Source of the DNA: Acaryochloris marina MBIC11017
Lineage (GTDB): Bacteria; Cyanobacteriota; Cyanobacteriia; Thermosynechococcales; Thermosynechococcaceae
NCBI RefSeq assembly: GCF_000018105.1
Contig: NC_009925.1
Location: 3,510,001-3,542,000, forward strand
Reading direction: 5' to 3'
Length of the DNA stretch: 32,000 bases
The notes beneath the pieces are model-generated. The model ran no database searches. It was given only the letters and a program-made list of their open reading frames with translations, and had not been told where the DNA came from. This document shows positions 1,245-19,533 of the stretch, one piece after another. Position numbers and translations under genes: made by a program. The first letter of the stretch is position 1. The number at the start of each line of letters is the position of its first letter.

Positions 1245-1639
1245 TGGTGGGTTGAGATCGCAAGTTGGTTTGTCTATGGCATACCCATGGGAATCTTAGC
1301 GTTTCCGATTCTGGGAGAGCAGGTCAAGGTAATGGGAGACCATCTCATAAAACTCTTCCATTCCCCGTTGTCTGGCACGCTGTGGTTTCAATTTTTGATG
1401 ATCTTGTTTGCCACTGCATTTCTAGTCATGGTGTGTCTTTGTACGCTGATGATTCTGGTGAAAGGGACGATCCGGAAACTCCAACAGCACCGTTAAAATC
1501 TCTGGACCCATGATTAAGCTGAGCTTAAAGAGATTGAACTGGTCATACCTATCCCCACTTTTCTTTCTCTAGAGACTCACAAGTTCCTCAACTTTCATCC
1601 ATAAGCTGAAAAAAGAGGCTATGGAACAGGAGTCTGAGC

Positions 1640-2086: not shown

Positions 2087-2132
2087 CTATTAAGACCGGT
2101 TTTCCTGACCGTTTGACCGATGTCTCCCTGGT

Positions 2133-2140
2133 GCGATCGC
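2133..2140. repeat. HIP1 octamer GCGATCGC (first of nine copies)
   Basis: Exact copies at 2133, 5372, 11909, 20522, 23105, 23241, 24322, 24447 and 28519 (start coordinates). A random 32-kb sequence would be expected to contain roughly 0.5 copies. Confidence 0.9.
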
Positions 2141-2208
2141 AAAAATACGCTCATAATTGGAGTAGCGATGCCCTAAGCGATGCAATCGGACCTAACGTCG
2201 GGAGGCCG

Positions 2209-4497
2209 ATGATGCGAATACTCGTTGTTGAGGATGATCAGCCCACCGCTGAAACCTTAACCACTCTCCTAAACCAGTGCAGCTACGCAGTGGAAACTGT
2301 GGCGGATGGCGAAACTGCTGCAGATCTGGTGAATGCATTTGAATATGACTTGCTCCTGCTGGATGTGATGCTGCCTAAAGTAGATGGCATTACCCTTTGT
2401 CGCCAACTGCGAAATCAAGGCCATACCATGCCGATTTTGCTGCTGACGGGAAAGGGGGACAGTCATGACAAAGCGGTGGGGCTCGATGCCGGGGCGGATG
2501 ATTACGTCGTCAAACCCTTTGACCTAGAAGAATTAGAGGCTCGTATTCGGGCCTTACTACGTCGGGGACATCTCCATACCTCGCCGATTTTGGAATGGGG
2601 TCGCTTGCAGTTGGATCCCAGCTCCACCCAGGTGAGCTATCACCGGCAGCTCCTAGCGTTGACGCCCAAAGAGTATGCGCTACTGGAGTTGCTGATGCGT
2701 AATCCTCGGCGGGTATTTAGCTGTGGCATGTTGCTAGAGCATCTATGGACCTATGAAGATATGCCTGGCGAAGAGGCTGTTAGAACCCATATCAAAGGTC
2801 TGCGCCATAAGCTCCGGGATGCCGATGCACCGGCCGAGATGATCGAAACTGTGTATGGCATTGGCTATCGCCTCAAGCCTTTAGCAGAATTAGAGGCAGA
2901 AACACCGTCCTTTCAGCAGGAAAATCAAGCGGCCATTGCCAATATTTGGCAGCGGTATCAGGCTCGGATTAGTCAGCAGGTTCAGGCGTTAGAACGGGCC
3001 AGCGTTGCCTTTCAAAATCATCAAGGCCACCTCAGCGCGGATCAACAGCAGCAGGCAGAGCAAGAGGCCCATACCTTAGCGGGGGCCTTGGGCATGTTTG
3101 GCATTCATGCGGGGACTCAATTAGCGCGCCAGATTGAGCAACTCCTGCACCAGCCCCAACCCTTAGGTACAGAGGATATTGGAGAATTTCAGCATCAGGT
3201 AGAGACCCTCCGACAGACGATTGAGGCCCATGGCCCGGTCTCACCTGCCGACACTCTGGATTCCCTAGGCACCCTGCCGTCTTTGCTGGTGATCGATGCC
3301 GATCAAGATTGGATAGCTGACTTAACGGACCAAGCTCGATATTGGGACTGGACCGTCCAGACGGTGAAAGATCTAGACGTCGCCCATCGGTCCCTGACTC
3401 AGGATGTGCCTCAGGTGATTCTGATGGATCCATCTGTGGCGGACCATAAGGATCAAACCCTGGCTTTCCTAGAGCAGGTGACCCATCATACGCCCCCGAT
3501 TCCTGTCTTGTTCTATGGCTTGCCGGAAGGACTGCATTCGCGGCTAGAAGTGGCTCGTCTGGGGGGAAAAGCCTTTTTAGAGAAACCGATCGCTCCCCTG
3601 CAGGTGCTCCAAGAGGTGGAGCGGGTGCTGCATCAGTCTCAATCCATCACTGCCAAAGTCATGATTGTGGATGATGATCCGAGTTTGCTGCAGTTGCTGC
3701 CTCCTTTATTGGAGCCTTGGGGGTTTAAGGTGAGTACCCTTGCCGATTCCAGACTGTTTTGGCAAACCTTGGTGGCGGTCGCCCCGGATCTCCTGATTCT
3801 CGATATCGAAATGCCCCATGTGGGGGGAATGGACCTTTGCCAGATCGTCCGCAACGATGCCTACTGGTATAACCTACCGATTATCTTTTTGACAGCCCAT
3901 ACCGAAGCTGAGACGGTCAATCAGATTTTCGCCCTGGGGGCGGATGATTTTGTCAGTAAACCTGTCGTTGGCCCCGAACTGGTGGTGCGTCTTGTCAATC
4001 GTCTGGAGCGAATGCAGCTTTCCCAACAGCTTTGGCAGGTTGATACCCTCACCAAAGCCTATAAGCGGCAACCCGCCATTGCTCGTTTGGAACAGATGAT
4101 GAAGCGGGCGCAAGATCTACAGCAACCCTTGAGTCTGGCCTTAGTTAAAGTGACCAATCTGCGGCTGATTAATGCTGAATTTGATTTGGAAACCGGAGAC
4201 TCGATTTTGCGTCAGGTGGGATATACCCTAGGTCAAGGCTGTGGGAAAGATGATGTGGTGGCTCGCTGGAGTAGCAATGAGTTCTTGATGGGGCTGCAGG
4301 ATGTCCAGGAGATGGAAGCAGAGGATCATGTCCAACATCTATGCCAGGACTGTTTGCAAGCCCACGCCCTGGCCCATGAGGCGGTGCCCATGCACCTCGA
4401 CTTAGGGGTGGTGCAATATCCTGAGGCGGGGACGACCTTATCGGCCCTGTATAAAGCTGCCGATCACCACCGGATGGGGAGGCAGGCTGATGCTTGA
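2209..4497 (+). CDS. Multidomain response regulator: REC, OmpR-type winged helix, HPt-like, receiver-like, REC, degenerate GGDEF
   Basis: ATG 2209 (or 2212) is preceded by GGGAGG at 2200-2205; the track start 2083 is a TTG overlapping the upstream stop. Domains by eye: REC (MRILVVEDD..LLDVMLP..KPF). Winged helix (LTPKEYALLELL..GYRL). HPt-like helix with His330 (EAHTLAGALGMFG, codon 3070-3072). Receiver-like domain (LLVIDAD..ILMD). Canonical REC (VMIVDDD..LILDIEMP..SKP). C-terminal GGDEF fold with active-site motif replaced by RWSSNEF (SSNEF = 4270-4284). Confidence 0.85.
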   Translation: MMRILVVEDDQPTAETLTTLLNQCSYAVETVADGETAADLVNAFEYDLLLLDVMLPKVDGITLCRQLRNQGHTMPILLLTGKGDSHDKAVGLDAGADDYVVKPFDLEELEARIRALLRRGHLHTSPILEWGRLQLDPSSTQVSYHRQLLALTPKEYALLELLMRNPRRVFSCGMLLEHLWTYEDMPGEEAVRTHIKGLRHKLRDADAPAEMIETVYGIGYRLKPLAELEAETPSFQQENQAAIANIWQRYQARISQQVQALERASVAFQNHQGHLSADQQQQAEQEAHTLAGALGMFGIHAGTQLARQIEQLLHQPQPLGTEDIGEFQHQVETLRQTIEAHGPVSPADTLDSLGTLPSLLVIDADQDWIADLTDQARYWDWTVQTVKDLDVAHRSLTQDVPQVILMDPSVADHKDQTLAFLEQVTHHTPPIPVLFYGLPEGLHSRLEVARLGGKAFLEKPIAPLQVLQEVERVLHQSQSITAKVMIVDDDPSLLQLLPPLLEPWGFKVSTLADSRLFWQTLVAVAPDLLILDIEMPHVGGMDLCQIVRNDAYWYNLPIIFLTAHTEAETVNQIFALGADDFVSKPVVGPELVVRLVNRLERMQLSQQLWQVDTLTKAYKRQPAIARLEQMMKRAQDLQQPLSLALVKVTNLRLINAEFDLETGDSILRQVGYTLGQGCGKDDVVARWSSNEFLMGLQDVQEMEAEDHVQHLCQDCLQAHALAHEAVPMHLDLGVVQYPEAGTTLSALYKAADHHRMGRQADA

Positions 4498-7105
4498 GCA
4501 AGTTCATCTTCTGCCTGATCAACAGAGCTGGATGACATCCCTGCTGAATACGGTGCCTGCCCTAGTGGTCATTCTGGATGCCCAGGGTCGGATTGTGGGC
4601 TTTAATCAAGCCTGTGAACAGGTGTCTGAGTATACCTTTGCGGAGGTGAAAGAGCGATTTCTTTGGCAGGATTTGCTGTTGTCAGAAGAACAGGCCGGTG
4701 TACAAGCCGTTGTTGAGCAGCTGCTTTCTCATCAAGGCCCCAGTCAACATCAAAATCACTGGCGGACAAAGACCGGAGAACGTCGCCTGATCGCCTGGTC
4801 AAATTCTGTGATTCAGCAGGGGCACGCAGTCCAGTTTGTGATTTGCATGGGCGTTGATATTACAGAACAACAGCAGTCGGCGTTGGTTTTGCAGCAACAG
4901 ATTGAGCATGAACGACTGTTGAGTGGTATTGCTGCCCGCATCCGCCAATCCTTAGATCTGCGGACCATCCTTAACACGACTGTGGATGAAGTTCGGCAGC
5001 TGTTAGAGACGGATCGGGTGCTGATCTTTCGGATCGAAGAAAATTGGGACGGTATCGTGCTGGTGGAATCCGTCGATACGGACCAATGGCCTTCGATCCT
5101 GGGGGTTAAAATTCACGATCCGTGCTTTCCTGATATTTATGGGGGGCCGCCAGAGCAAATCCATGCTAGTGCGGTTGATAATATCTACACTGCCAATCTG
5201 TCTCCCTGTCATCAAGAGTTACTCCAACAGTTCCAGATTCAAGCCAATTTAGTGGTGCCCATTATCTTGGAGAATCGAGTCTGGGGTTTACTGATGGCCC
5301 ACCATTGTCGGGAGCCGCGCCATTGGAAGTCTCTAGAGATTAAGTTACTGAGTCGATTGGCGATTCAACTTGCGATCGCAATTCAGCAGTCCGAACTGTA
5401 TTGCCAACTGCAGGCAGAATTGACCGAGCGTGAACAAGTCGAAGTGGTTTTGCAAGAAGCCAAACATAATCTAGAGCAGCGGGTTGTGGAGCGCACCGCA
5501 GCCCTCCGCCAGGCCAACCAACAATTACGATCTGAACTGCAAACCCGTCAACAGGCAGAAGCGGCCTTACAGCATTCGCAGAAGCGTATCTCTGGCATTT
5601 TGGAAATTGCCGATGATGCCATTATTTCCGTGGATGGCTCTTTTACCATCACCCTGTTCAACCAGGGGGCGGAAAAGATGTTTGGATATCGCCGTCAAGA
5701 TATCCTCGGCCAGCCCCTGCATAAGCTCTTGCCCGATGATTTGGTCCTGTCTCATCAATCGCAGATGCAGCGGTTTGGTGACGCTTCCAAGGACGCATCC
5801 ATGACCACCCAAATGGGGGCTCGGCGTCGCCCGATCACCGCTCAGCGTCGAGATGGTACCTACTTTACGGCGGAGGCCTCCATTTCTAAACTGCAGATGG
5901 GTGAAGAACAGGTCTTTACGGCCATTCTGCGAGACATTACTGAGCGTCTAGAAGCTCAAGCGTCCCTGACCAAGCTCACCCGCCAAAATGAATTGATTCT
6001 TAATTCCATGGGGGAAGGGCTTTGTGGGGTCGATTTACAGGGGCACATCACCTTTGTGAATCCCGCTGCGGCTGATATGCTGGGCTACGCGATTTCTGAT
6101 TTGATTGACCAGCCAATGGCAACAATTTTGGGGCCTGATCCGCAACCGCTGAATGGCGATCTGAATGCCCTTTATCCCTTTGAGGATTCTTTACGGTCGG
6201 GGACCACCCATCGGTTTATTACCGATGAATTTCAGCGGCGCGACGGCACCCTGTTCCCAGCGGAATATGTGAGTACTCCGATTCGTGAACAGGAAAAGAT
6301 TACGGGAGCGGTAATCACTTTTAAAGATGTGAGTGATCGTCAAGTGGTGGAACGGATGAAGGATGAATTTATTTCCGTGGTCAGCCATGAACTGCGCACG
6401 CCCCTGACCTCGATTCATGGATCTCTGCGGATGCTCACTAGTGGCTTGTTGACTGCTCACCCCGATAAAAGCCAACGCCTGCTTAAAATTGCTGTTGATA
6501 GTACCGATCGGTTGGTGCGGCTCATTAACGACATTTTAGATGTAGAACGGATTGAATCCGGGCAGGTCAGCATGACCAAAGACCCGTATAATATTGCCGA
6601 TTTGATGGTTCAAGCCGCCAATACCATGCAGGGCATGGCGAGTCAGATGCAGGTGCAATTAGCAGTAACACCGTTAGCCGTGCTGACGGATGTGGATGGA
6701 GATCGAATTGTCCAAACCCTGACTAATCTTTTGAGCAATGCGATTAAATTTTCCCATTCGGGGGGCACTGTAGAAATGAGTGCCCATGTAATGCCGCAAC
6801 AGCCGCCAAGCTGTGCCTTAAGTGCCCCTGCCGCCCCCTCCCTGACCCCCGGCGATGCGCCTCAAGTCTGTATTTGGGTGCGCGATCAGGGGCGAGGGAT
6901 TCCCCCTGACAAAATCAACACCATCTTTGAACGGTTTCAACAAGCCGATTCTTCCGATGCCCGAGACCATGAGGGCACAGGGTTAGGACTGGCCATTTGC
7001 CAGAGTATTGTGCATCAACATGGCGGCCAAATTTGGGTAGAAAGTCAGCTCGGAAAAGGGAGTACCTTTTCCTTCACCTTACCCATTCAGCGAAACGACA
7101 CGTAA
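4490..7105 (+). CDS. Soluble sensor histidine kinase (PAS, GAF, coiled coil, PAS, PAS, HisKA, HATPase_c)
   Basis: ATG 4490 overlaps the upstream stop by 8 nt (ATGCTTGA). No TM segment is evident. H-box VSHELRTPLTSIHG, N-box NLLSNAIKFS, G1 VRDQGRGI, G2 GTGLGLAI. A GAF-like block ends ...VWGLLMAHHC. Confidence 0.9.
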   Translation: MLEQVHLLPDQQSWMTSLLNTVPALVVILDAQGRIVGFNQACEQVSEYTFAEVKERFLWQDLLLSEEQAGVQAVVEQLLSHQGPSQHQNHWRTKTGERRLIAWSNSVIQQGHAVQFVICMGVDITEQQQSALVLQQQIEHERLLSGIAARIRQSLDLRTILNTTVDEVRQLLETDRVLIFRIEENWDGIVLVESVDTDQWPSILGVKIHDPCFPDIYGGPPEQIHASAVDNIYTANLSPCHQELLQQFQIQANLVVPIILENRVWGLLMAHHCREPRHWKSLEIKLLSRLAIQLAIAIQQSELYCQLQAELTEREQVEVVLQEAKHNLEQRVVERTAALRQANQQLRSELQTRQQAEAALQHSQKRISGILEIADDAIISVDGSFTITLFNQGAEKMFGYRRQDILGQPLHKLLPDDLVLSHQSQMQRFGDASKDASMTTQMGARRRPITAQRRDGTYFTAEASISKLQMGEEQVFTAILRDITERLEAQASLTKLTRQNELILNSMGEGLCGVDLQGHITFVNPAAADMLGYAISDLIDQPMATILGPDPQPLNGDLNALYPFEDSLRSGTTHRFITDEFQRRDGTLFPAEYVSTPIREQEKITGAVITFKDVSDRQVVERMKDEFISVVSHELRTPLTSIHGSLRMLTSGLLTAHPDKSQRLLKIAVDSTDRLVRLINDILDVERIESGQVSMTKDPYNIADLMVQAANTMQGMASQMQVQLAVTPLAVLTDVDGDRIVQTLTNLLSNAIKFSHSGGTVEMSAHVMPQQPPSCALSAPAAPSLTPGDAPQVCIWVRDQGRGIPPDKINTIFERFQQADSSDARDHEGTGLGLAICQSIVHQHGGQIWVESQLGKGSTFSFTLPIQRNDT

Positions 7106-7120
7106 AGGTATACCGGATAC

Positions 7121-7501
7121 ATGACAGCAAAGTGCATCCTCGTAGTGGATAACGAGCTTTACATTCAAGAAGTGGTTCAGATTGCGTTAGAAACGATCAA
7201 CAATTGGCGCGTCGTCACGGCCAGTTCTGGTGCTGAAGGGCTGCTGAAGGCGGAGAAAGAACGCCCCGATGCTATTCTCTTGGATATGATGATGCCGGAT
7301 ATGGATGGGGCCACTACTTTTCAGAAGCTGCAGGCTAATCCAGTTACGCAAACCATTCCAGTGCTGTTACTGACCGCTAAAATTCAAACGGCGGATCAAA
7401 AGCGTTATCAAGCCATGGGCGTCCATTCGACGATTGCCAAGCCCTTTGATCCGTTGCAGCTCCCCACCCAGATTGCAGATGTATTAGGCTGGCAGTTATA
7501 G
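7121..7501 (+). CDS. Single-domain CheY-like response regulator
   Basis: 126 aa. ILVVDNE, phospho-acceptor context AILLDMMMPDMDG, LLLTAK, AKPF. Starts 15 nt after the kinase stop. Confidence 0.9.
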   Translation: MTAKCILVVDNELYIQEVVQIALETINNWRVVTASSGAEGLLKAEKERPDAILLDMMMPDMDGATTFQKLQANPVTQTIPVLLLTAKIQTADQKRYQAMGVHSTIAKPFDPLQLPTQIADVLGWQL

Positions 7502-7539
7502 CCGCCCGATCAAGGGCTTGATCCTTACTCTCCCCCAGC

Positions 7540-8634
7540 ATGAAGCCATCCGAACCTTCTTTTACCTTGTCGATTGCCAGTTTGATGCGTGTAGGAGTGA
7601 TCAGTTTGGGGCTGCTGTTACTGTGGCAACTCCAAAATTTAGTGGTGGTGCTGATGATTTCCATCGTCTTGGCCTCTACTTTGGCTCCGATTATTCAGCA
7701 GGTGGAAGCGTTACGAGCGCCTCGATGGTTGGCGGTGTTGGGGGTCTATATCAGTTTGATTGGAGCGGCGATCACGGCCACCCTGGTGATTGGTCCGACG
7801 ATCACAGAGCAAATTCAACGGATTGTCGCCGCACTACCGGGTTATTTAGATGCCCTGACGACGCTGATCGAAGACTCGATTATGCAGTTGGGCATCAGTA
7901 AGCCAGAAGATTTGGGCATGATCAATCAGGTATTGGATCTACAAGCTCTGACGGCTTGGACCTTTCGGTCGAGTCAAAAGCTGATTCTCCAGTCCGTAGA
8001 TATCACCAAAGGCTTATTGGGAGGGGTCTTTAACTTGCTGTTAGCGCTGATTTTGTCAGCCTATATGCTGTCCGATTCCCAACGCTTGCTGCAAGGGCTA
8101 GTGGCGCTTTTCCCTCAGCCCTGGGAACAGCGGTTGGCGGATCAAGTCCATCCCGTGAGTCAACGGATGGGGGCCTATATCCAGGGTCGCCTACTGGTCT
8201 CGCTGATTTTGGGAACCACGGTGAGTATTGGCTTGAAGCTGATTGGCATTACGGAAGTGGCCTTGGGATTGGGGGCCATTGCGGGCCTGACTAATTTGAT
8301 TCCCTTCTTTGGACCCGTGCTAGGGGCGATTCCAGCGTTGCTGGTGGCGGTTGCCCAGGGGGGCTGGACGGTGGTGTGGGTGTTTTTGCTGTTTGTGTTG
8401 ATCCAAAATCTAGAAACCTATGTCCTTGATCCGTTGGTAGTGAGTCCGTCGGTGAATGTGCCGCCCCTGTACCAACTATTAGCGGTATTGGGAGGCACCC
8501 AAGTGTTGGGAATTATTGGGGCCTTAATTGCCCCACCCTGGGTCGCGGCAGGAGGTGTCCTGATTGAAAATTTATACCTGCAACCCAAACGTGATGCAGA
8601 GCAGCAGACTCAGCCTGAGCCAGAGATGGGGTGA
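7540..8634 (+). CDS. AI-2E family transporter (PerM/YhhT-like, UPF0118) membrane protein
   Basis: 364 aa and polytopic. Carries the conserved C-terminal block LTNLIPFFGPVLGAIPALLVA typical of this family. Confidence 0.8.
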   Translation: MKPSEPSFTLSIASLMRVGVISLGLLLLWQLQNLVVVLMISIVLASTLAPIIQQVEALRAPRWLAVLGVYISLIGAAITATLVIGPTITEQIQRIVAALPGYLDALTTLIEDSIMQLGISKPEDLGMINQVLDLQALTAWTFRSSQKLILQSVDITKGLLGGVFNLLLALILSAYMLSDSQRLLQGLVALFPQPWEQRLADQVHPVSQRMGAYIQGRLLVSLILGTTVSIGLKLIGITEVALGLGAIAGLTNLIPFFGPVLGAIPALLVAVAQGGWTVVWVFLLFVLIQNLETYVLDPLVVSPSVNVPPLYQLLAVLGGTQVLGIIGALIAPPWVAAGGVLIENLYLQPKRDAEQQTQPEPEMG

Positions 8635-8662
8635 CTGACGGCTGAGTTCAGATTCTTCATTT

Positions 8663-8703
8663 CCAAACTTGAGGGGTGATCCTCACATTTTCCCCAAGTT
8701 TGG
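8663..8703 (+). terminator. Candidate stem-loop downstream of the AI-2E transporter gene
   Basis: CCAAACTTG (8663-8671) pairs with CAAGTTTGG (8695-8703), extended by GGG/CCC after a 1-nt bulge. It starts 29 nt after the stop codon. No U-tract follows, so terminator function is uncertain. Confidence 0.3.
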
Positions 8704-8795
8704 AGAGTATTCTCCACATAAAGGATACTGGCTGGCTTCTGTGATGGAAGCTGTACCTGAATCTGAATAACTGCGTTCGACCCCCCTAAAGACTG

Positions 8796-9107
8796 ATGAC
8801 GAAGACCTTAATTAATCTCACGTTAGCTATCGTGAAAGAAGAGGCGGAGTTACTCGCAGAGTATTGTCCCAACCCTATCTACCAAGATGTGCTGGGGAAT
8901 CCCGCAACTAAACAGGAACTGATGACCTATGTTTTAAGTCGAGTTCCCAATACCTATGTACTGACTGCGGAACCAACGCCCCTGTCTGCACGTGGACAAA
9001 CCACTGCCTACCGTCTCCACATTGAGACATTACTGAAGCAAGGCATGGACGTACTTGGCGGCCATCGTCCGATGACTGCCCTTCGGGAGACTCAAACTGT
9101 TGGATGA
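8796..9107 (+). CDS. Small conserved-looking protein, possibly ComFB-like
   Basis: 103-aa ORF with an ATG start. NLTLAIVKEEAELL....KQELMTYVLSRVPNTYV resembles the ComFB pattern (N-x-x-E-x-L-V-E-E-E ... Y-A-L-N-R-L-P-P-x-Y). This is pattern resemblance only. Confidence 0.5.
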   Translation: MTKTLINLTLAIVKEEAELLAEYCPNPIYQDVLGNPATKQELMTYVLSRVPNTYVLTAEPTPLSARGQTTAYRLHIETLLKQGMDVLGGHRPMTALRETQTVG

Positions 9108-9210
9108 GCGGCTGGATGCCCGTTTTTCCTTGCTTAGATGACTAGCCTGACTGTTTGTACTTGTAGATGAGATTGTTTAACCAAGCATTAACGATGCTGG
9201 GGGACTGGAG

Positions 9211-9447
9211 ATGACTGCCAACCGATACCAACAACTGATTGACTTTTTAACCCAAGAAGTCGGGATTTCGACAGAGTCGATCAATATTGCCCTGAAGTCT
9301 TGTCAACAACAGCAAGGGCCTTTGCCGATGATTCTGTGGCAGTACGGCTTGATTACATTAGAGCAGCTTAATGAGGTCTTTCATTGGATTGAGACATCTT
9401 TTGGTCCCGATGAAACCTACAACATTACAATCAACTGTGAAAAATGA
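9211..9447 (+). CDS. DUF2949-family protein (cyanobacterial small protein)
   Basis: 78 aa. The LIDFLTQEVGIS....LPMILWQYGLITLEQLNEVFHWIE block matches my recollection of the DUF2949 signature (LPMVLWQYGLITLEQLD). Confidence 0.75.
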   Translation: MTANRYQQLIDFLTQEVGISTESINIALKSCQQQQGPLPMILWQYGLITLEQLNEVFHWIETSFGPDETYNITINCEK

Positions 9448-9454
9448 GGTTTTT

Positions 9455-9739
9455 ATGTTCTCTTTAACCACTCGACATCAACCTTGGTGGGTACATATTC
9501 AAACCACGATTCCTGATTGTCAATATTATTTTGGCCCCTTCGATACTATCGAAGAGGCAGAGGCCCATCAATCGGGGTATGTAGAAGATTTAGTCCAAGA
9601 GCAAGCCTTAGAAATTGTGGTCAAAGTCAGTCGCTGCCAACCTGAAATGTTGACCCTTTGTGATGAAGAAGATCTTTATCCTATGGACTGGCGGGATTTG
9701 TCTCCCCATGACCGACCGACGGTGCTATGCCATTGCTAG
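9455..9739 (+). CDS. DUF1816-family protein
   Basis: In-frame ATG 9455 is preceded by GAGG (9446-9449) and lies 8 nt after the DUF2949 stop. WWVHIQTTIPDCQYYFGPFDTIEEAEAHQSGYVEDLVQE matches the DUF1816 signature (WWVEI.T..P.C.YYFGPF...EA). The track's 9371 start would overlap the upstream gene. Confidence 0.75.
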   Translation: MFSLTTRHQPWWVHIQTTIPDCQYYFGPFDTIEEAEAHQSGYVEDLVQEQALEIVVKVSRCQPEMLTLCDEEDLYPMDWRDLSPHDRPTVLCHC

Positions 9740-9742
9740 CCT

Positions 9743-10051
9743 TTAATCGGTGGTAATCCAGAAAAAGCCTGGATCCGTGCGCCGCTGATCATCGAGTAAT
9801 TCAGATTCCCAAATATCAGGATTGGCGGTGGCTGCCAAGGGACGCTTGCCCGACATTTGTAGCTCAAGGTCGGGGGTCTGGGCGGGAGTGTCGCTGTTTT
9901 CTGGAAATAGGGTAATGGAAGGCTTTACTTCACCCCCCAAAGCTTTAGCAGATTCTCGCGGTGCGGGGGGAGAAGGGATGGTTCCGGCCCAGGCGGGGCT
10001 GGTGAATGTTGTCAGCAGACTGGCAACCAGGATGAATTTGAGAGAAGTCAT
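9743..10051 (-). CDS. Small secreted hypothetical protein (Sec signal peptide)
   Basis: 102 aa. N-terminal MTSLKFILVASLLTTFTSPAWA|G has n-h-c signal-peptide structure. The mature part is Pro- and acid-rich. No family recognised. Confidence 0.6.
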   Translation of the reverse strand: MTSLKFILVASLLTTFTSPAWAGTIPSPPAPRESAKALGGEVKPSITLFPENSDTPAQTPDLELQMSGKRPLAATANPDIWESELLDDQRRTDPGFFWITTD

Positions 10052-10147
10052 GGTATGTGTGAGGGTTTCAGATACTGGCAGTCTAGAAACTCGCGGGAAA
10101 AGTTGGGGTGTCTCAGCCCAGCCTGTAATGGCGATCTAGATCATTGC

Positions 10148-10158
10148 TAGGATGCCCA
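10148..10158. repeat. Left copy of the 11-bp direct repeat TAGGATGCCCA bracketing the AT-rich islet
   Basis: TAGGATGCCCA is read at 10148-10158 and again at 11436-11446. The two copies enclose only the UDG-like gene plus its flanking AT-rich DNA. Confidence 0.7.
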
Positions 10159-10240
10159 CTCTCTCGTGAGAGAGATCTGGAAGGATGGGCGTGCGATCTC
10201 AACCAACGTATTGCGTGAACCCAGTACGTCTTAACTCCAA

Positions 10241-10278
10241 TGGTAAAAACATAAGCGAGTGAAAGTGTTCATTCACTC
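10241..10278 (-). terminator. Candidate intrinsic terminator of the UDG-like gene
   Basis: On the minus strand, GAGTGAA / TTCACTC form a 7-bp stem (10257-10263 with 10272-10278) with an 8-nt loop, followed by GCTTATGTTTTTACC. It lies about 95 nt after the stop codon. Confidence 0.35.
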
Positions 10279-10373
10279 AAATGACTCAAGCATCCAACTT
10301 ATAAGTTTGGGAAACATTTTAGGCGTTTCAATGAGATATAAAATTAGCATCGATATATCAATGTTTTTACACT

Positions 10374-11354
10374 TTATTGATTAGTCCAATTGGGTTCCCA
10401 ATCTTTAATTTTTGACTGCCAATACTTTACTTTATTGGCATGTGTAGCACGTTGCCCATTTAATATAGTTGACCAACACCTGTTTCCTCCACTAGGATGC
10501 GGAAAATTGAACCTATTAACTTTTAAGGGGAGTTTTTTGATTTCATTAGCTGCTTGTTTCCCCCATGTTATTAGCGCTACTGGATCACCAATTTTTAATT
10601 CTTCCTCTAGTATGTTTAAAAAACGATCAGCGTTTGAGCCAAGTGGTATACCTCGATTCTGCTTACCTGCTTGCCTAATCCAGATTTTAAAAATATCAGT
10701 TAAGTAAACTCTGTAGCCTTTTCTGAGCAAGACATCAACCATTTTGAAATAAAGTTTTGTAGCCCGATGGCTTTCTCGACAACCTTTAGCATGAAAGCCA
10801 AATGGTGTGCCTAATTCAAGTTTGTCTGACTGCTGACTTCTAAGTGGATCTTGCGCAAGAATAACAATAGTTGGTTTATGGGAGCATGTGTTATTAAGTT
10901 CAATCAGGCTAGGTAAGTCAGATCCAACCATTGGAGCATTGTTGTACCGCTCACAAAACTCTTGCCCCTCAGGACTGAAAAAAGAACGACTTACCATTTG
11001 AGGCTGAGGATAATCTGGCAAGTCAAATGTATCGCGCCATGAATTGTAAAAGGTTTCTAACTGTGCCCGGCTAGTGTTAAAAACTGAACATAGAACTTTG
11101 CTTAACTCTGAAAATTCTGTAGGGCTAAATTTACAGAATGCGTAACTTGGATATGGATTTAAGGTTGAAGTTTGTATTATGTGATTTTTCCAATATGAAA
11201 CATGCTCTTCAATACGATCGCTAATTCTCTCTTGTCCGGATTCTTCCAACCATTTTGCAATGGTTTGTCTTTGGGGTATTTTTTTGCCTTTGAGTTCTTT
11301 TGCAATTTCCTGGCGGACCGTCTCAACTGTATGAGGACCTGACGAATGATTCAT
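10374..11354 (-). CDS. Divergent uracil-DNA-glycosylase-superfamily protein with an unrecognised ~170-aa N-terminal domain
   Basis: ATG at 11354 (the track start 11387 is TTG). The C-terminal ~165 aa carries UDG-fold landmarks in canonical order and spacing (numbering from the track ORF). VILAQDP (A178-P181 = 10845-10856). GTPFGF. VYLTDIFK (Asp231 = 10695-10697; family-4 consensus vYItNvvK). FPHPSGGN (H297-G300 = 10488-10499). The gene is visibly AT-rich relative to its neighbours. Confidence 0.65.
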   Translation of the reverse strand: MNHSSGPHTVETVRQEIAKELKGKKIPQRQTIAKWLEESGQERISDRIEEHVSYWKNHIIQTSTLNPYPSYAFCKFSPTEFSELSKVLCSVFNTSRAQLETFYNSWRDTFDLPDYPQPQMVSRSFFSPEGQEFCERYNNAPMVGSDLPSLIELNNTCSHKPTIVILAQDPLRSQQSDKLELGTPFGFHAKGCRESHRATKLYFKMVDVLLRKGYRVYLTDIFKIWIRQAGKQNRGIPLGSNADRFLNILEEELKIGDPVALITWGKQAANEIKKLPLKVNRFNFPHPSGGNRCWSTILNGQRATHANKVKYWQSKIKDWEPNWTNQ

Positions 11355-11435
11355 AGAATGGCGTGGGTGAGCTGTGGAGCAAAACAATCACGAAATGCCT
11401 AATGTATTTACAGGCTTATCGTTTTTCCTTATTTT

Positions 11436-11446
11436 TAGGATGCCCA
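11436..11446. repeat. Right copy of the 11-bp direct repeat TAGGATGCCCA
   Basis: Identical 11-mer. It lies 46 nt downstream of the pstB stop (11492) and 82 nt upstream of the UDG-like ATG (11354). Confidence 0.7.
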
Positions 11447-11491
11447 GCTTTTTCTGCCTCAAGTTTAAACAGCTTGTTGAATAGCGACTGA

Positions 11492-12301
11492 TTAACCCCG
11501 GCGACCGCTGACATAGGCTGCCGTCAGGGGATCTTGGGGATGGGTAAAAATCTCTTGAGCGGAGCCAAATTCAATCAATTGACCCACATCATGCTGCACC
11601 CAGAAAAAAGCCACATCATCGGCAATACGGGAGGCTTGGCCGAGGTTGTGAGTGACAACCAGAATCGTATAAGTGCCTTTTAACCGCACAATTAAATCTT
11701 CGATCACTTCGCTGGAGAGGGGATCCAGGGCACTACAGGGCTCGTCCATGAGCAGAACTTGAGGTTTTAAGGCCAAAGCTCTTGCGAGGCAGAGGCGTTG
11801 CTGTTGCCCTCCAGACAGGGAAAGGGCAGGCGCTTTGAGGCGATCTTTGACTTCTGTCCACAGGCCCACATCCGTGAGGGTGGTTTCGATGATGTGGTGG
11901 ATATGGGTGCGATCGCAAATCCCATGCTCTTTCAACGGAAATGCCAAATTGCGGTAAATGGAGAGGGGAAAGGGATTCGGTTTTTGGAACAGCATGCCCA
12001 CTTGGCGGCGCAGGGGCGTTAGGGGTATCGTCGCCGTATCGCAATCATTTAAATAAACTTGACCAAAAAGCTGAGCTTTAGGTGTGAGTTCATGGAGGCG
12101 ATTTAAACAGCTTAAAAAGCTGGTTTTGCCACAGCCCGATGGACCGATTAAAGCCGTTATCTGTCCCGCTCGAAACTGAGCATCCACATTGGCAAAGGCC
12201 ACCTTGCGCCCATAGCGTAAACTCAGCTGTTCTACCCGGACGCTAGGAGGCTGGTGATGATCAGCGGTGAGGGATGGTGGGCTCAAGGTGGGAGAGGTCA
12301 T
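11492..12301 (-). CDS. pstB: Phosphate ABC transporter ATP-binding protein PstB
   Basis: 269 aa. Walker A GPSGCGKTS followed by the PstB-typical FLSCLNRLHEL, signature LSGGQQQRLCLARAL, Walker B LLMDEP. Start ATG overlaps the pstA stop (TCAT at 12298-12301). Confidence 0.9.
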   Translation of the reverse strand: MTSPTLSPPSLTADHHQPPSVRVEQLSLRYGRKVAFANVDAQFRAGQITALIGPSGCGKTSFLSCLNRLHELTPKAQLFGQVYLNDCDTATIPLTPLRRQVGMLFQKPNPFPLSIYRNLAFPLKEHGICDRTHIHHIIETTLTDVGLWTEVKDRLKAPALSLSGGQQQRLCLARALALKPQVLLMDEPCSALDPLSSEVIEDLIVRLKGTYTILVVTHNLGQASRIADDVAFFWVQHDVGQLIEFGSAQEIFTHPQDPLTAAYVSGRRG

Positions 12302-13152
12302 AGAATTTGTAGTTTGGATTGGCGAAAGCGTTCGGCTAACCAGGAGACTAAAGTATTAATCAGGATAAGCAAGATGACGAGGACTAGAGCAGTCCCATAG
12401 GCATTCTGTTCACCGCCGGGGATATTCATCGCCAAGTCGAAAATATGAATCGATAGTACCCGGCCAGAATCGAGTAATGATGTCGGCATCCGATCGACAT
12501 AACCACTTGTGAAAATTAAGGCAGCAGTTTCTGCAATGGCCCGTCCAATTCCCAGCAAAACCCCCACGGCAATCCCCGGTAGCGCTGCCGGTAAAATCAG
12601 GGTTTTCAGGGTGCCTAAACGAGATAATCCTAATGCTGCTGCCGCTTGGCGATACTCGCGAGGGACATTAACTAGTCCCACCTGAATGGAGCGAATGAGA
12701 ATGGGCAACACCATACAGGCTAAGGTCAGGCCCCCGGACAAAATGGAGAATCCCAGATCTAAAACTTTTGAGAAAAAAGCATTGCCAAACAGGCCAAACA
12801 CTATTGAGGGGACCCCTGCCAAAATATCTAAGCTGAGACGAATGACCCGATGAGAGCGCTGTGGATTGAATTCCGATAAGAACACAGCCGTGCCTAATCC
12901 CAAGGGAAGGGATACGCCCATACAAACCCCTAAGACGAGTCCTGTGGAGACCAAAATGGGAGCAATACCGCCTTCTAGCCCAGCTTTAGCGGGAGCTTGG
13001 GTTAAAAAGGTACCATTGACGGCTTGCCCTCCTTGCCAAATCACATTGCTGAGCAGCCAGAGAAACACAGCGGTAATTCCCAAGGCCACTAGCCAAACCA
13101 CCAGGGTGGCTCCTTGTTCCTTACCAATAGGGATAGCCAGACGACGGACCAT
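12298..13152 (-). CDS. pstA: Phosphate ABC transporter permease PstA
   Basis: 284-aa polytopic permease in the conserved pstS-C-A-B order, with an EAA-like loop (GRAIAETAALIFTSG). Confidence 0.85.
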   Translation of the reverse strand: MVRRLAIPIGKEQGATLVVWLVALGITAVFLWLLSNVIWQGGQAVNGTFLTQAPAKAGLEGGIAPILVSTGLVLGVCMGVSLPLGLGTAVFLSEFNPQRSHRVIRLSLDILAGVPSIVFGLFGNAFFSKVLDLGFSILSGGLTLACMVLPILIRSIQVGLVNVPREYRQAAAALGLSRLGTLKTLILPAALPGIAVGVLLGIGRAIAETAALIFTSGYVDRMPTSLLDSGRVLSIHIFDLAMNIPGGEQNAYGTALVLVILLILINTLVSWLAERFRQSKLQIL

Positions 13153-13153
13153 C

Positions 13154-14056
13154 TCAACCCTCCGGTGAATCCGTCCAGGGATCGGTGACGACGACCAGCC
13201 CAGTTACCACCAGCATGAGAACAAGTCCACTGGCAAATAGGGCTGAACGGTGAAGATCGAGGGCATAGGCCATTTCCAAGGCAATATTGGCAGTCAATGT
13301 ACGGACAGGGGCAAAGATCGAATCGGGGACCTGGACAACATTTCCGCAGACCATGAGGACCGCCATGGTTTCGCCTAGGGCGCGGGCGGTGGCGAGCATC
13401 ACAGCCGTTAAGATACCAGAGCGAATAGCAGGTAAACAGACCCCCTGGATGGTGGCCCAGGTTCCTACACCCAATGCGGCGGACCCGCGCCAGTAGGATG
13501 AGGGTAAGCTGGCTAGACTGGCATCAGTAACCAGGGCAATCGTGGGCAAAATCATCAAAGCTAAAATCAAAATTCCCGCCAAGAGACTAGAACCGGGGGG
13601 CTGAACTTTGGCAATTAAAGGCACGAGAACTACTAGGCCCCATAAGCCATAGACCACAGAGGGAATGCCAGCCAGTAACTCGATTAGGCGTCGATAGAGT
13701 TGGGAAACGCCTGCTGGGGCATAGTATTGGCAAAATACCGCTGATAAAAGTCCTAGGGGAGTTGCCACCAATACTGCGCCAATGGTGACTCCCAATGTTC
13801 CCATCACCATCGGAGTGAGATTGTACGCCTGTTCACTAGGGTGCCAACCTGGATCTCGCCAAAATTGATTGAGAGAAATGGTGCGCAGAATCGGTAGCGT
13901 TTCCCAGATAAGAAAGCCCAGAACTAACAGCAAAATGGCCCCGGAACAGAGCGCCAGGATCTGCAACAGAATTCTCCAGATTGCTTCACTCTTGAACCGG
14001 GACAAGGGACTGCTCCTGCACAATATCCTTGACCTGGGAGGATTGGGCAAAGTCAA
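13154..14056 (-). CDS. pstC: Phosphate ABC transporter permease PstC (start codon uncertain)
   Basis: 300-aa polytopic permease with an EAA-like loop (ARALGETMAVLMVCG). The track start 14056 is a TTG that overlaps pstS by 71 nt. An in-frame TTG at 14005 would cut the overlap to 20 nt. Confidence 0.8.
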   Translation of the reverse strand: MTLPNPPRSRILCRSSPLSRFKSEAIWRILLQILALCSGAILLLVLGFLIWETLPILRTISLNQFWRDPGWHPSEQAYNLTPMVMGTLGVTIGAVLVATPLGLLSAVFCQYYAPAGVSQLYRRLIELLAGIPSVVYGLWGLVVLVPLIAKVQPPGSSLLAGILILALMILPTIALVTDASLASLPSSYWRGSAALGVGTWATIQGVCLPAIRSGILTAVMLATARALGETMAVLMVCGNVVQVPDSIFAPVRTLTANIALEMAYALDLHRSALFASGLVLMLVVTGLVVVTDPWTDSPEG

Positions 14057-14846
14057 TAAATTTTTGCTGTTGGGGATTGAGGGGGCCTTGAGTCACTAAG
14101 TTGAGGGGACGCGATAGGGGAAACGATCCATCTCGAACGGTTTGGGCCGTCGCCTGAATTCCTTCTAGGGGCAGTACTTTAATAGGAGTGCCCTGTTCCA
14201 CATTCACTTTCGCTGCGCCGACGGATACATAGCCAATGGCCAGCGGGTTACCTGCCACGGTTTTGATGCCTTGCTCGTTATCGCCAATGACTACATCCGC
14301 TTTAATCTGCGAGGACTTGAGCTGGAAGTGCTTGGTAAAGACTTCTAATGTGGAGCGACCTTCAGCTTTATTGACGACGGTAATGGCTTGGGATTTACCG
14401 CCAGCGTCCTGCCAGTTGTTGAGCTTGTCCGTATAGATATCGGTAATTTGCTGACGAGTCAGTCGCTGAATCGGGTTATCCCGATGGACAATCACCACAA
14501 CACCATCTTTGGCGATGGTATGGAAGTTGAGGCCCTGGTCTTCTGGTTTGGCGGCGCGGGACACCATGCCAATATCGGCGACCTGTTGGCGCACATCGGC
14601 AATGCCACGAGACGAGCCTCCTGTTTGTACGTCAATCCGCACCTGGGGGTTTTGGGCTTCATAGCGTTTGGCGATTTCGGAGGCAACGGGGGCAATGGTA
14701 CTGGATCCAGTAATCACCAGTTTTTGCGGGGCGTTGTCGGAGCTAGACGCTTGTAAACTGCTACAGGCTTGCAATCCCAGGGATAAACCCAAAAACGCAC
14801 CGGCGATGGCTCGACCAGACATAACGGTTCCTGCTAATGACTCCAT
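13986..14846 (-). CDS. pstS: Phosphate-binding protein PstS (PBP-like-2 family), probable lipoprotein
   Basis: 286 aa. ITGSSTIAPVASEIAKRY....GGSSRGI is typical of PstS-family binding proteins. Lipobox-like LGLQAC. Alternative ATG at 14822. First gene of the operon. Confidence 0.8.
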   Translation of the reverse strand: MESLAGTVMSGRAIAGAFLGLSLGLQACSSLQASSSDNAPQKLVITGSSTIAPVASEIAKRYEAQNPQVRIDVQTGGSSRGIADVRQQVADIGMVSRAAKPEDQGLNFHTIAKDGVVVIVHRDNPIQRLTRQQITDIYTDKLNNWQDAGGKSQAITVVNKAEGRSTLEVFTKHFQLKSSQIKADVVIGDNEQGIKTVAGNPLAIGYVSVGAAKVNVEQGTPIKVLPLEGIQATAQTVRDGSFPLSRPLNLVTQGPLNPQQQKFIDFAQSSQVKDIVQEQSLVPVQE

Positions 14847-17601: not shown

Positions 17602-19485
17602 ATGTCGGCACCAGATTTAATCCATACCCTGGAACAGACAACTCGGAAACGACTCAAACAAATGTCTGTTGAGGACTTTAATCAAAGTCTGGATGATACC
17701 TATCACCATTTGCAACTTCAGCCCAATGCTTATGCCCTAAATGATGAACATCAAATCGTTGGGCTGAGTTTGCAAGGGGTGGATGGCCATGAATTAGTGG
17801 ACGCATCCATCGAGCAATATCCACATCTCTCCGCCTTGTATTTATTCGATATTGTCTCGCCCGAAATCGTCCCATTTGCCAGTCTCCCAGGACTCTCCAC
17901 CATTGCCCTGTCGGGACAAGACGTGACGGCTGCCTCCTATCTTCAGCCAACCACCAATCTCACCACGGTTTATTTAAAAACCACCAATATTTCTGATTAT
18001 TCCTTCTTGTCGGACCTCAAGAACCTAACCCACCTCGACTTAAGCAACAATCAGATTGCTGATCTTTCCTTTATCCAAGACCTTAAACAACTCACTAGCC
18101 TCGGGTTGGCGTCAAACAAAATTGTTGATATCTCAGGACTAAAAGACCTGACGAAACTGAACACCCTGAATTTGCGCTCCAATGCAATAGACGATTATTC
18201 CGTGTTGCTCAATCTCAAAGAACTTCGCCAACTAACGGTTAGTGTTCGTGAAGCAACCGATCTTGCCTTTCTACAAGATCTTAAAGACCTGACCCATCTA
18301 GATCTCAGTTACAACCACTGGATTTCTGATATTTCGGTTTTACGCAATCTCCCAAAGCTCACCCATCTAGATTTAGGGTCTAATCAGATTTCGAATATTG
18401 CAGTTTTGCTAGACCTGCAACAACTTACGCACCTGTCTTTAAGTTCCAATCAAATTTCTGATGTTTCTGTCTTACAAACCCTCCAGGGACTTGAACGTCT
18501 GGATGTCAGTGCTAACGAGATTGCTGATATCGCCATCCTACAAAATCTCCAAGGGTTGACCCATCTGGATATCAGCTCTAACGAAGTGTCTGACATTTCC
18601 GTTTTGCAGGATCTCACGACGCTCACCCAACTGAACGTCAGTTCAAATGAGATTATTGACTATTCCGTTTTACAAGGTCTAACCCAACTCACGAGCCTAG
18701 ATGTCAGTGATAATCAGATGTCTGAGATCTCAGACTTACAGGGACTGCACTCACTCACCAGTCTGAACCTCAGCTATAACCAGCTGTCTGATATTTCAGT
18801 CTTACAGGACCTCAAGCAACTGGCTACTCTGAACTTAAGCTACAACCCAGTCTCTGATATTGCAGTACTGCAAAACTTCAAGGATCTCACCACCCTGAAT
18901 TTAAGTTTCACCCAGATTACCGACCTCTCCCACCTGCAAGACCTTAAAGGACTAATCAGTTTAGATTTACATAGCAATCAGATTACAGATATCTCAGCGT
19001 TACAAGACCTGGAGGGACTCTACCGGCTGAATGTCAGTGATAATCAGCTGTCCGATATTGCTGCATTAAGAAAACTCAAGGGCCTCTTCAGCCTGAATTT
19101 AAGCATTAATCAGATTTTAGATATTGCAGCCCTACAAGATCTCACAAGACTAACTAGCTTGAATGTCAGTCATAATCAGCTGTCTGATATTTCAGTTTTG
19201 CAGGGACTCACCAGGCTGAACAGTCTAGATTTAGGAGCCAACCAGATTGCTGATATCTCAGTTCTGCAAAATATCCCAGGGCTTTTTAGTCTGGATTTGC
19301 GATTTTCTGATGTTTCTGTGTTTCAAGACTTCAAGGGATTGACCAGTCTGAATCTCAGTTCTAATCAAATTTCTAGCGTTCCTGAATGGTTACGTGAACA
19401 GGGGCTTCCCATTCAAACGGAGGATGAAGAGGCCTTATTCTGCATTAACTTATGTGGTAATCCCCTCCCAATGTCACCTGGATAG
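17602..19485 (+). CDS. Leucine-rich-repeat protein (internalin-type 22-residue LRRs), no signal peptide
   Basis: 627 aa. At least 21 consecutive units of consensus LxxLxxLTxLxLSxNQIsDIsvLq. Confidence 0.9.
   Translation: MSAPDLIHTLEQTTRKRLKQMSVEDFNQSLDDTYHHLQLQPNAYALNDEHQIVGLSLQGVDGHELVDASIEQYPHLSALYLFDIVSPEIVPFASLPGLSTIALSGQDVTAASYLQPTTNLTTVYLKTTNISDYSFLSDLKNLTHLDLSNNQIADLSFIQDLKQLTSLGLASNKIVDISGLKDLTKLNTLNLRSNAIDDYSVLLNLKELRQLTVSVREATDLAFLQDLKDLTHLDLSYNHWISDISVLRNLPKLTHLDLGSNQISNIAVLLDLQQLTHLSLSSNQISDVSVLQTLQGLERLDVSANEIADIAILQNLQGLTHLDISSNEVSDISVLQDLTTLTQLNVSSNEIIDYSVLQGLTQLTSLDVSDNQMSEISDLQGLHSLTSLNLSYNQLSDISVLQDLKQLATLNLSYNPVSDIAVLQNFKDLTTLNLSFTQITDLSHLQDLKGLISLDLHSNQITDISALQDLEGLYRLNVSDNQLSDIAALRKLKGLFSLNLSINQILDIAALQDLTRLTSLNVSHNQLSDISVLQGLTRLNSLDLGANQIADISVLQNIPGLFSLDLRFSDVSVFQDFKGLTSLNLSSNQISSVPEWLREQGLPIQTEDEEALFCINLCGNPLPMSPG
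18007..19389 (+). repeat. Tandem ~66-bp coding periodicity (LRR array)
   Basis: 21 units of 19-23 codons. Units are diverged at DNA level but share exact stretches, for example the 20-mer CAGCTGTCTGATATTTCAGT at 18781-18800 and near 19178-19197. Confidence 0.85.
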
Positions 19486-19533
19486 CGTTTGAATATCTGT
19501 AGATTGAAGGTATCCAACGAAGCCATCCCCTGA

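Follow-up and report, generated by a model that had tools for sequence, protein, structure and literature searches.

A divergent uracil-DNA glycosylase superfamily protein with aspartate aligned to the base-reading position, encoded on a strain-variable insert in Acaryochloris marina MBIC11017

The DNA glycosylases that act against phages are reportedly a very recent class, with Brig1 described in 2024 and Brig2, Dag, and Brig3 in 2025–26. To our knowledge, all of them came from functional screens or from structure mining of Vibrio-type integrons. In this work, a gene for a protein resembling the uracil-DNA glycosylases (UDGs) was analyzed in a 32,000-nucleotide stretch of Acaryochloris marina MBIC11017 (NC_009925.1, positions 3,510,001 to 3,542,000 of the forward strand). 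This whole stretch is referred to as the window, and its own numbering from position 1 is used throughout. The coding sequence occupies 10374..11354 on the minus strand and specifies a protein of 326 residues, which is a genuine but highly divergent member of the UDG superfamily. Its residue D220 aligns with the asparagine that reads uracil in family-4 enzymes, and the gene is accessory and moves horizontally. A probability of about 0.5 is assigned to the proposal that the product would be a monofunctional glycosylase for a non-uracil base, probably of the modified-cytosine type, acting in defense against phages and other mobile genetic elements.

Brig1 was obtained from soil DNA and is a UDG-superfamily glycosylase that excises α-glucosyl-5-hydroxymethylcytosine from the DNA of T-even phages (PMC11078745). 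Glu147 of Brig1 stands at the N82 position of the family-4 fold, the substitutions E147A and E147Q abolish immunity, excision of glucosyl-hmC likewise depends on this residue, and the closest structure is 4zbx (PMC11078745). Brig2 provides defense against phages with modified thymidines, and its homologues are found mainly in Pseudomonadota and Bacillota (bioRxiv 10.1101/2025.10.29.685425). UDG-like proteins have been found in integron cassettes, within A/T-rich acquired DNA (Getz et al. 2025, bioRxiv 10.1101/2025.10.29.685425).

The active site of the family-4 enzymes provides the reference for the residues discussed below. N80 forms two hydrogen bonds with uracil, at N3 and O4 (PMC5387724), and F54/F55 stacks on the base (PMC5387724; PMC11078745). 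The histidines at the motif-2 position, H155 and H187, stabilize the leaving base, H155 acting on the leaving uracilate (PMC5387724). In family 4, the doublet E41-G42 is the counterpart of Q63-D64 in the Escherichia coli UNG (PMC5387724). In the E. coli enzyme, the N123D variant gains activity on cytosine, and Y66 keeps the 5-methyl group out of the pocket (PMC3989344).

The longest form of the reading frame, which is the sole long open reading frame (ORF) at this position, spans 10374..11387 on the minus strand. A start at TTG 11387 was rejected in favor of ATG 11354 because the two closest homologues, P0001 and P0002 (326 residues each; 87% and 86% identity), begin at the same methionine. 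The stop codon is at 10376–10374. Residues are numbered here in the 326-residue protein. An initial annotation of this DNA had counted from TTG 11387 while its coordinates started at 11354, and its D180, F196, D231, and H297 accordingly become D169, F185, D220, and H286, a shift of 11. The four landmarks that it listed, AQDP, PFGF, VYLTDIFK, and HPSG, are all present in the translation and in the order given. The spacing of D169, F185, D220, and H286 (16/35/66 residues) is comparable, as it had stated, with that of the family-4 UDG of S. tokodaii (12/27/82) and of the family-1 Ung of E. coli (13/46/64).

The proposed membership in the UDG superfamily is well founded. The Pfam profile UDG (PF03167) matches residues 158–312 at 25.2 bits, where the curated cutoff is 24.3 (E 1.9e-5), and the same profile is matched by 28 of 30 family members. 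An AlphaFold2 (AF2) model built on the family alignment has a predicted local distance difference test (pLDDT) score of 83.9. A Foldseek comparison of the full-length model, a check suggested by the initial annotation together with profile searching, returned only UDG-superfamily structures on top: every match with E ≤ 1e-3 is a SMUG1, a family-4 UDG, or a UdgX. These matches have E values near 1e-4 and modest target-normalized template modeling (TM) scores of 0.33–0.51, and the model displays the four-stranded parallel-sheet α/β fold. The UDG-fold core comprises residues 163–326 (10377..10868, minus), as delimited by the Pfam match, by the hhalign alignment to family 4 (residues 163–292), and by Foldseek. 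The core strands in the AF2 model are β1 (162–167), β2 (215–220), β3 (258–264), and β4 (280–284).

The presence of UdgX structures among the Foldseek and profile matches could point to a non-hydrolytic UDG-fold protein, such as a lesion binder, a UdgX-like cross-linker, or a dead reader, and family membership is no proof of turnover. Such a function is extremely improbable. The UdgX-specific insertion with the cross-linking His109 has no counterpart in this protein, and the alignment needs gaps there. The D-P doublet, the stacking aromatic residue, and the motif-2 histidine are nearly invariant, as in active enzymes.

Single-sequence searches of the PDB, NCBIfam, and PADLOC matched nothing useful. 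A first homologue search returned 51 homologues, and when the representatives of 1.84 billion clusters (50% identity) were searched exhaustively with HMMER, 723 clusters matched at E ≤ 1e-3 and 533 at the stricter E ≤ 1e-10. The description of the protein as an orphan is contradicted by these numbers. An alignment of 117 sequences drawn from the HMMER family matches, designated A4, was compared with four solved family-4/UdgX sequences using hhalign, which gave a probability of 97% and an E value of 1.2e-10 over 113 columns from β1 to motif 2. Motif 1 after β1 and motif 2 after β4 are in register with family 4 in this alignment. A search of PDB sequences with the family profile detected the S. 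tokodaii UDG (4zbx) at E 2.7e-6.

Motif 1, A167-Q168-D169-P170 (10845..10856, minus), aligns with E42-A43-P44 of the S. tokodaii UDG. In A4, D169 is conserved in 112 and P170 in 110 of the 117 sequences, and D169 is retained in 129 of the 135 aligned representatives of the exhaustive search. Across the family, motif 1 takes the form x-(Q/E/I)-D-P-(L/K); the residue after D-P is thus Leu or Lys throughout, and it is Leu171 in the window protein. The stacking-aromatic loop is P184-F185-G186-F187 (10794..10805, minus), where G182-T-P-F185 aligns with G52-R-P-F55 of the S. tokodaii enzyme. P184 occurs in all 117 sequences of A4, and 131 of the 135 aligned representatives have Phe or Tyr at position 185.

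Strand β2 and the base-reading position are found in V216-Y-L-T-D220-I-F-K223 (10686..10709, minus), with the D220 codon GAT at 10697–10695. Profile alignments place D220 on N82 of the S. tokodaii UDG and on N80 of the T. thermophilus UDGa, because VYLTD pairs with VFITN/VYITN, and K223 falls on K85. The initial annotation had aligned VYLTDIFK with the family-4 block by eye, with Asp replacing Asn, and the profile–profile alignment arrives at the same pairing. It had also cited the human UNG variant N204D, which reportedly excises cytosine. D220 and K223 are present in every sequence of A4 (117/117) and in all 137 aligned representatives of the unbiased exhaustive search. Judged from these alignments, the aspartate is an invariant trait of the family and not a one-off substitution.

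Motif 2, H286-P-S-G (10488..10499, minus), aligns with the HPA/HPS of family 4 and with the HPSP of family 1. H286 is conserved in 116 of the 117 sequences of A4 and in 117 of 120 representatives of the exhaustive search. E252, G265, P184, and P148 are likewise invariant or nearly so, and Y217, T219, D146, and G144 follow closely. No conserved set of cysteines is found in A4, in which no column apart from one N-terminal position contains more than 21% Cys; the Fe-S cluster of family 4 is therefore absent.

The region ahead of the core consists of two parts. Residues 69–162 (10869..11150, minus) form a family-wide N-terminal region that is covered by nearly all of the ~258-residue homologues, the typical homologue spanning residues 70–326 of the query. 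The pLDDT in this region is mostly 91–98, with dips to 75–85 at residues 111–120 and 151–160. It contains the motif G144-x-D146-x-P148, in which P148 is conserved in 117, D146 in 116, and G144 in 111 of the 117 sequences of A4. Residues 1–68 (11151..11354, minus) form a lineage-specific helical extension common only to P0001–P0004; it is confined to Acaryochloris-type proteins and two metagenomic relatives. Its helices span residues 10–22, 29–38, and 44–63, with pLDDT values of 68–76 in the full AF2 model.

The N-terminal part has no match in Pfam or NCBIfam, and sub-threshold Pfam matches to BRK and XLF were disregarded. A separate AF2 model of residues 1–165 (pLDDT 81) has no structural neighbor in the PDB by Foldseek, where the best E value is 5.4. 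The earlier statement that residues 12–175 match nothing recognizable therefore agrees with these searches. The accompanying claim of a novel N-terminal domain fails as a description of one domain, given the family-wide region of ~95 residues and the lineage-specific extension of ~68 residues.

The alignments combine a family-4-like scaffold with a motif-1 doublet of the family-1 type and an Asp as the base reader. The similarity to family 1 is weak: hhalign gives probabilities of 9% (alignment A1) and 22% (A4), restricted to motif 2, and PDB searches give E values of 0.02–1. Membership in family 1 was rejected on account of this weak similarity in motif 2 only, despite the shared QD doublet. 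The family is a distinct and so far unnamed branch of the UDG superfamily that is best treated separately, because it lacks traits that define family 1 and traits that define family 4.

The gene is carried on a low-GC insert of 1,297 bp (10195..11491) that is absent from A. marina AP026075. Comparison using blastn and MAFFT identified an empty site in that genome (locus L062, 6811–6842), where 32 bp stand in place of the 1,297 bp. The flanks of the insert are 95.5% and 97.7% identical to AP026075, and the gene order from pstSCAB to a response regulator is shared. The GC content is 39% in the insert versus ~50% in the flanks. The insert begins directly past the stop codon of pstB and ends ~180 nt beyond the gene. 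The pstSCAB phosphate-transporter operon (11492..14846, minus; PBP_like_2, two BPD_transp_1, and ABC_tran) is co-directional, immediately upstream, and outside the element, and the window PstB is 96% identical to the A. marina PstB. The gene is a strain-variable, foreign presence/absence insertion in A. marina-like genomes.

A more distant relative, represented by locus L005, also carries the insert. Between the two copies, the synonymous divergence (dS) of the gene is 0.27, and that of five flanking genes is 0.6–1.07; this dates the gene as younger than the DNA around it. The ratio of nonsynonymous to synonymous divergence (dN/dS) is 0.24 for the gene and 0.04–0.06 for the flanks. The gene is under purifying but relaxed selection.

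The ends of the insert were compared for repeats. The octamer GGGGTTAA (11492..11499, minus) at the left junction includes the stop codon of pstB, and the octamer GGAGTTAA (10231..10238, minus), near the right end of the insert, is an imperfect repeat of it. Together they conform to an imperfect G(G/A)GTTAA. As a lead only, the octamers may mark a crossover at G/TT, between G and TT, and the window copy might have arrived by integrase-mediated insertion at a secondary site of this type. The meaning of the octamers is unproven because the window copy is without a detectable attC. The 36–40 nt beyond the right-hand octamer differ strongly from the 32-bp empty site, and the adjoining DNA is ~99% identical. 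An 11-nt direct repeat, TGGGCATCCTA (11436–11446 and 10148–10158, minus), has one copy in the insert upstream of the gene and one in host DNA downstream; its interpretation as a target duplication was abandoned because the downstream copy is present at the empty site too. The repeat is probably due to chance or microhomology.

Within the window, no sigma-70-like promoter was detected upstream of the gene, and an Rfam search gave no match. A terminator-like hairpin with a T-run was located by consensus scan inside the insert (10256..10279, minus), 95 nt past the stop codon. It is kept as an annotation only because the terminator count is not above the shuffled expectation; the promoter and terminator scans as a whole are at background. 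In the window and several other loci, the UDG-like gene tends to lie 13–170 nt past the stop codon of a co-directional upstream gene. These upstream genes are pstB in the window, GrpE in L001, an ABC permease in L003, and cytochrome oxidase subunit III in L007 and probably in L037. The copies look like promoterless cassettes riding on host operons.

The family is distributed very patchily, with 48 loci among 185,579 species genomes. In this set it is nearly restricted to Cyanobacteria, with one copy in Acidobacteriota and distant relatives in Bacteroidota. The copies in different cyanobacterial orders share 81–88% nucleotide identity with sharp boundaries, and their genomic contexts vary from genome to genome. 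The GC content of the gene over 62 loci is 25–43% (34–43% in nearly all cyanobacterial copies, a range kept in hosts of 36–58%), irrespective of that of the hosts, which is 29–58%, and the gene lies below its flanks in 59 of the 62 loci, with a mean difference of −0.068 and a minimum of −0.19. Split or truncated copies occur in L015, L026, L036, L043, and L044, and partial cyanobacterial copies occur in L045, L048–L050, and L052. The split and truncated copies in several genomes indicate frequent decay.

These observations bear on the alternative of an accessory DNA-repair glycosylase, a mobile extra copy that would remove uracil or another endogenous lesion (deaminated, oxidized, or alkylated) from host DNA. 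The characterized UDG families apart from Brig1 and Brig2 are all repair enzymes, the catalytic-type residues are conserved here, the nearest scaffold is that of the family-4 UDGa, and the dN/dS of 0.24 reflects purifying selection. A repair function is nonetheless unlikely. The uracil-reading Asn is Asp in every member, and substitutions at the equivalent N80 cut the activity of family-4 enzymes more than 40-fold (PMC5387724). The small number of loci, the presence/absence polymorphism within A. marina, the foreign GC content, the frequent pseudogenes, and the carriage on an integron cassette described below also speak against it.

Searches of 50,697 sequenced phages (INPHARED) and 72,556 plasmids (PLSDB) gave no homologue. 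Distant relatives with 25–29% identity are present on IMG/VR contigs (L056 and L057–L061), where QDP, YLTD-x-x-K, and H(L/P)SG are kept. These contigs carry genes for integrase, excisionase, endolysin, and primase/helicase and an IS1595-like transposase, and they are probably Bacteroidota prophages or integrative elements. A function on the side of the element or phage, for example the breakdown of host or competitor DNA that differs in base composition or the erasure of marks that the host installs, would be in keeping with these contigs. It is a very improbable explanation, however, in light of the negative searches of phages and plasmids and of the cyanobacterial copies, which are chromosomal with no phage genes nearby. 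Prophage-borne copies would suit defense against superinfection equally well.

The genes within ±6 kb of ~60 loci were clustered, and only lineage synteny and a PIN toxin-antitoxin cassette recur. The neighbors include GNAT/TacA, ParE, PIN, Phd, and Uma2, with single matches to SngC, BrxHI, MkoA, and Dpd genes. The initial annotation had suggested checking whether homologues sit in defense islands; their neighborhoods are rich in toxin-antitoxin modules and include some defense genes. In L001 (Calothrix sp. PCC 7507), the homologue stands within an unusual cluster at 6087–14630 in the order of an 870-residue tetratricopeptide repeat (TPR) protein, a DnaJ-like protein, GrpE, the UDG-like protein, an 89-residue ORF, an HNH_2 nuclease, HSP70, and a TPR protein. 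This cluster could be a chaperone-centered conflict system or merely another insertion site.

Five loci from different genera (L039, L003, L006, L012, and L048) share a block of ~2 kb at 86–88% nucleotide identity. The block contains the UDG-like gene and ORFs for a 101-residue Zn-ribbon protein, a CopG-like antitoxin, and a PIN toxin. It starts with TTAGGCGGC and ends with CACCG followed by TTA. At its 3′ end, GCCGCCTAAC, a 5-nt spacer, and GTTGGTGCGGACGG are followed by CCGCCGCACAAC, a 6-nt spacer, and GTTAGGC. The block end is predicted to fold into a 7-bp R″/R′ stem, an internal loop, and an L stem in which two bases are bulged, and by this criterion it has the anatomy of an attC site.

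Locus L039 is from Filamentous cyanobacterium CCP2 (PVWD01000422.1), where an integron spans 1–3266. The attC site of 86 nt lies at 3181–3266 with the canonical GCCTAAC...GTTAGGC ends; it is the only one to pass the attC scans, in which shuffled controls gave 2 matches per 300 regions. The integrase gene intI (153–1121, minus) encodes 322 residues and matches TIGR02249 with 484.7 bits against a cutoff of 265. It is divergent to the cassette and 170 nt from the cassette start, and the intervening DNA is attI-like with two direct repeats of ~45 nt. Since intI, attI, and attC flank it, this homologue, with 43% identity to the window protein, occupies the first cassette of a complete integron. The copies in L003, L006, L012, and L048 have no integrase within the locus DNA examined. 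The earlier view that this is not a housekeeping gene is sustained by the strain-variable low-GC insert, by the horizontal mobility, and by the cassette of L039.

The composition of the shared block raises the alternative of a toxic or addictive effector that attacks ordinary cytosine or another normal host base, is held in check, and serves in abortive infection or as the payload of a selfish cassette. The cassette clade travels with the CopG-like/PIN pair and the small Zn-ribbon ORF, toxin-antitoxin modules are the commonest neighbors of the family, and copies often decay. Engineered cytosine glycosylases made from UNG by the Asn-to-Asp change are toxic and mutagenic, which also counts toward this alternative. 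It is quite unlikely, however: most copies, that of the window among them, stand alone and lack a conserved small ORF next to them, the window and L005 share no conserved candidate for an inhibitor, and purifying selection on a free-standing gene argues for tolerance.

A glycosylase acting in defense is the most economical reading because a free-standing enzyme directed at normal host bases would do harm and the gene has the behavior of a defense cassette. In the proposed mechanism, the target base would be flipped into the pocket and F185 would stack on it. D220 would act as the hydrogen-bond acceptor for an exocyclic amino group and, in its protonated state, as a donor to N3, matching the Watson–Crick edge of a cytosine-type base; it may also protonate N3 and thereby improve the leaving group. 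D169 would position or activate the water molecule, H286 would stabilize the departing base, and abasic sites would result. The Leu or Lys after D-P leaves the pocket without a Tyr gate, and 5-modified pyrimidines should therefore fit. As a single-gene defense like Brig1 or Brig2, the enzyme would excise a modified base from invading DNA of phage or other foreign origin, with a modified cytosine as the most likely target, and spare host DNA, which does not contain the target base.

Several points weigh against this proposal. The placement of D220 in the base pocket rests on profile alignment and secondary structure, and an Asp can bind uracil in one protonation state, so that uracil or 5-substituted uracils would be possible substrates. 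The targets of Brig2 are thymidine derivatives (bioRxiv 10.1101/2025.10.29.685425). No PADLOC model matches the protein. Homology to Brig1 is not detected by hhalign, which gave a probability of 0.7% and no aligned core with a Brig1 sequence machine-read from the supplement PDF. The window copy has no recognized defense gene adjoining it and stands beside a housekeeping operon, and the family has no universally conserved partner gene in the clustered neighborhoods. The ranking of toxin-antitoxin modules as the commonest neighbors comes from raw tallies of the neighborhoods. The marks of an integron seen in L039 are missing around the window copy: no attC was found by strict or relaxed R″/R′ and folding scans, and no IntI was found in the window by tblastn.

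Beyond the window protein, a broader and tentative suggestion is that it may be the founding member of a large natural “Asp-type” glycosylase family for an amino-bearing base, carried on promoterless integron-type cassettes and protecting cyanobacteria and Bacteroidota from viruses as a one-gene system. The base could be cytosine, in modified form or in some context even plain, or possibly an amino-purine such as the 2-aminoadenine of cyanophages. A defensive function, if correct, would represent a third, sequence-independent origin of a defense glycosylase on the UDG fold and a natural equivalent of the cytosine-DNA glycosylases made by engineering. It would also bring cyanobacteria, and a new active-site solution, into the class of anti-phage glycosylases.

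The site at which the engineered Asn-to-Asp change gives cytosine excision is occupied in this family by an invariant Asp, which makes the family a natural experiment on specificity switching in the UDG fold. UNG has been engineered into cytosine and thymine glycosylases that serve in glycosylase base editors, and natural Asp-type enzymes could be useful as tools of the base-editing type. A complete integron with a defense-like cassette is documented here in a filamentous cyanobacterium, as is a precise presence/absence polymorphism in Acaryochloris that is open to experimental use. Overall, the observation behind the initial annotation is confirmed and its interpretation is supported with respect to the Asp position and mobility; the orphan status and the single novel domain are not retained.

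Other features of the window were also annotated. An ORF with an IS1-type DDE transposase domain lies at 465–1154 (minus; PF03400, E 3.4e-22), at the left end. Three large repeat-domain proteins are encoded in a row at 17602–26433: a leucine-rich repeat protein at 17602–19485 (plus), an ankyrin and Kelch protein at 19534–21270 (minus), and a 1709-residue nSTAND1 NTPase with WD40 repeats at 21304–26433 (minus), whose orthologue in L005 also matches Peptidase_C14. This is a conflict-system architecture of the STAND/caspase type that is typical of multicellular cyanobacteria. A 658-residue protein encoded at 28228–30204 (plus) matches neutral/alkaline ceramidase over its full length (PF04734, E 1.2e-134), an enzyme that is uncommon in cyanobacteria.

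Among the known systems, the family-4 enzymes of T. thermophilus (1ui0) and S. tokodaii (4zbx) provide the best profile match. The G-x-P-F loop, the (V/I)Y(I/L)T-x-x-x-K strand, the “IxxxG” of β3, the HP(S/A) of motif 2 with its histidine, and the stacking aromatic residue (Phe/Tyr at 185) are shared with them. The present family differs in the Asp in place of N80/N82, in the motif 1 of A-Q-D-P-L versus G-E-(G/A)-P-G, in the KIW (K223-I-W) in place of KCR with no Fe-S cysteines, and in the additional N-terminal region of ~95 residues. With the family-1 UNG it has in common the QDP motif-1 doublet and the HPS of motif 2, whereas Leu or Lys replaces the Tyr66 gate, the His of GQDPYH is missing, and the sequences as a whole are unrelated. 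The Asn-to-Asp change that was engineered as N123D in the E. coli enzyme is the natural state in this family (PMC3989344). SMUG1 of family 3 (5h9i, 1oe5) is the top Foldseek match and resembles the protein in its size and in having N-terminal elements before motif 1; the match has an E value of ~1e-4, TM scores of 0.3–0.48, and 9–13% identity, and SMUG1 differs in its GMNPG with Asn and in its Asn base reader.

The comparison with Brig2 was made by description only. Both are UDG-like, and like Brig2 the family occurs in A/T-rich acquired DNA and, in the L039 homologue, on an integron cassette; Brig2 targets modified thymidines, and the present family is chiefly cyanobacterial. Brig1 differs in having Glu and not Asp as the acidic residue, in its motif 1 of GLNPG (with Asn) versus (Q/E)DP, and in lacking the conserved G-x-D-x-P N-terminal region. 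Identity with the Brig1 family was rejected on the hhalign result given above, and the acidic position that the two have in common is treated as a functional analogy only. The analogy drawn by the initial annotation thus stands for Glu147, which occupies the same position and is needed for defense, and does not extend to detectable sequence kinship. The features shared with Brig1 are the UDG fold, a family-4 UDG as the nearest structure, and an acidic residue (Glu147 or Asp220) in place of Asn. Like Brig1, the members of the family are single-gene proteins of ~260 residues that are annotated as “hypothetical” and encoded in variable regions.

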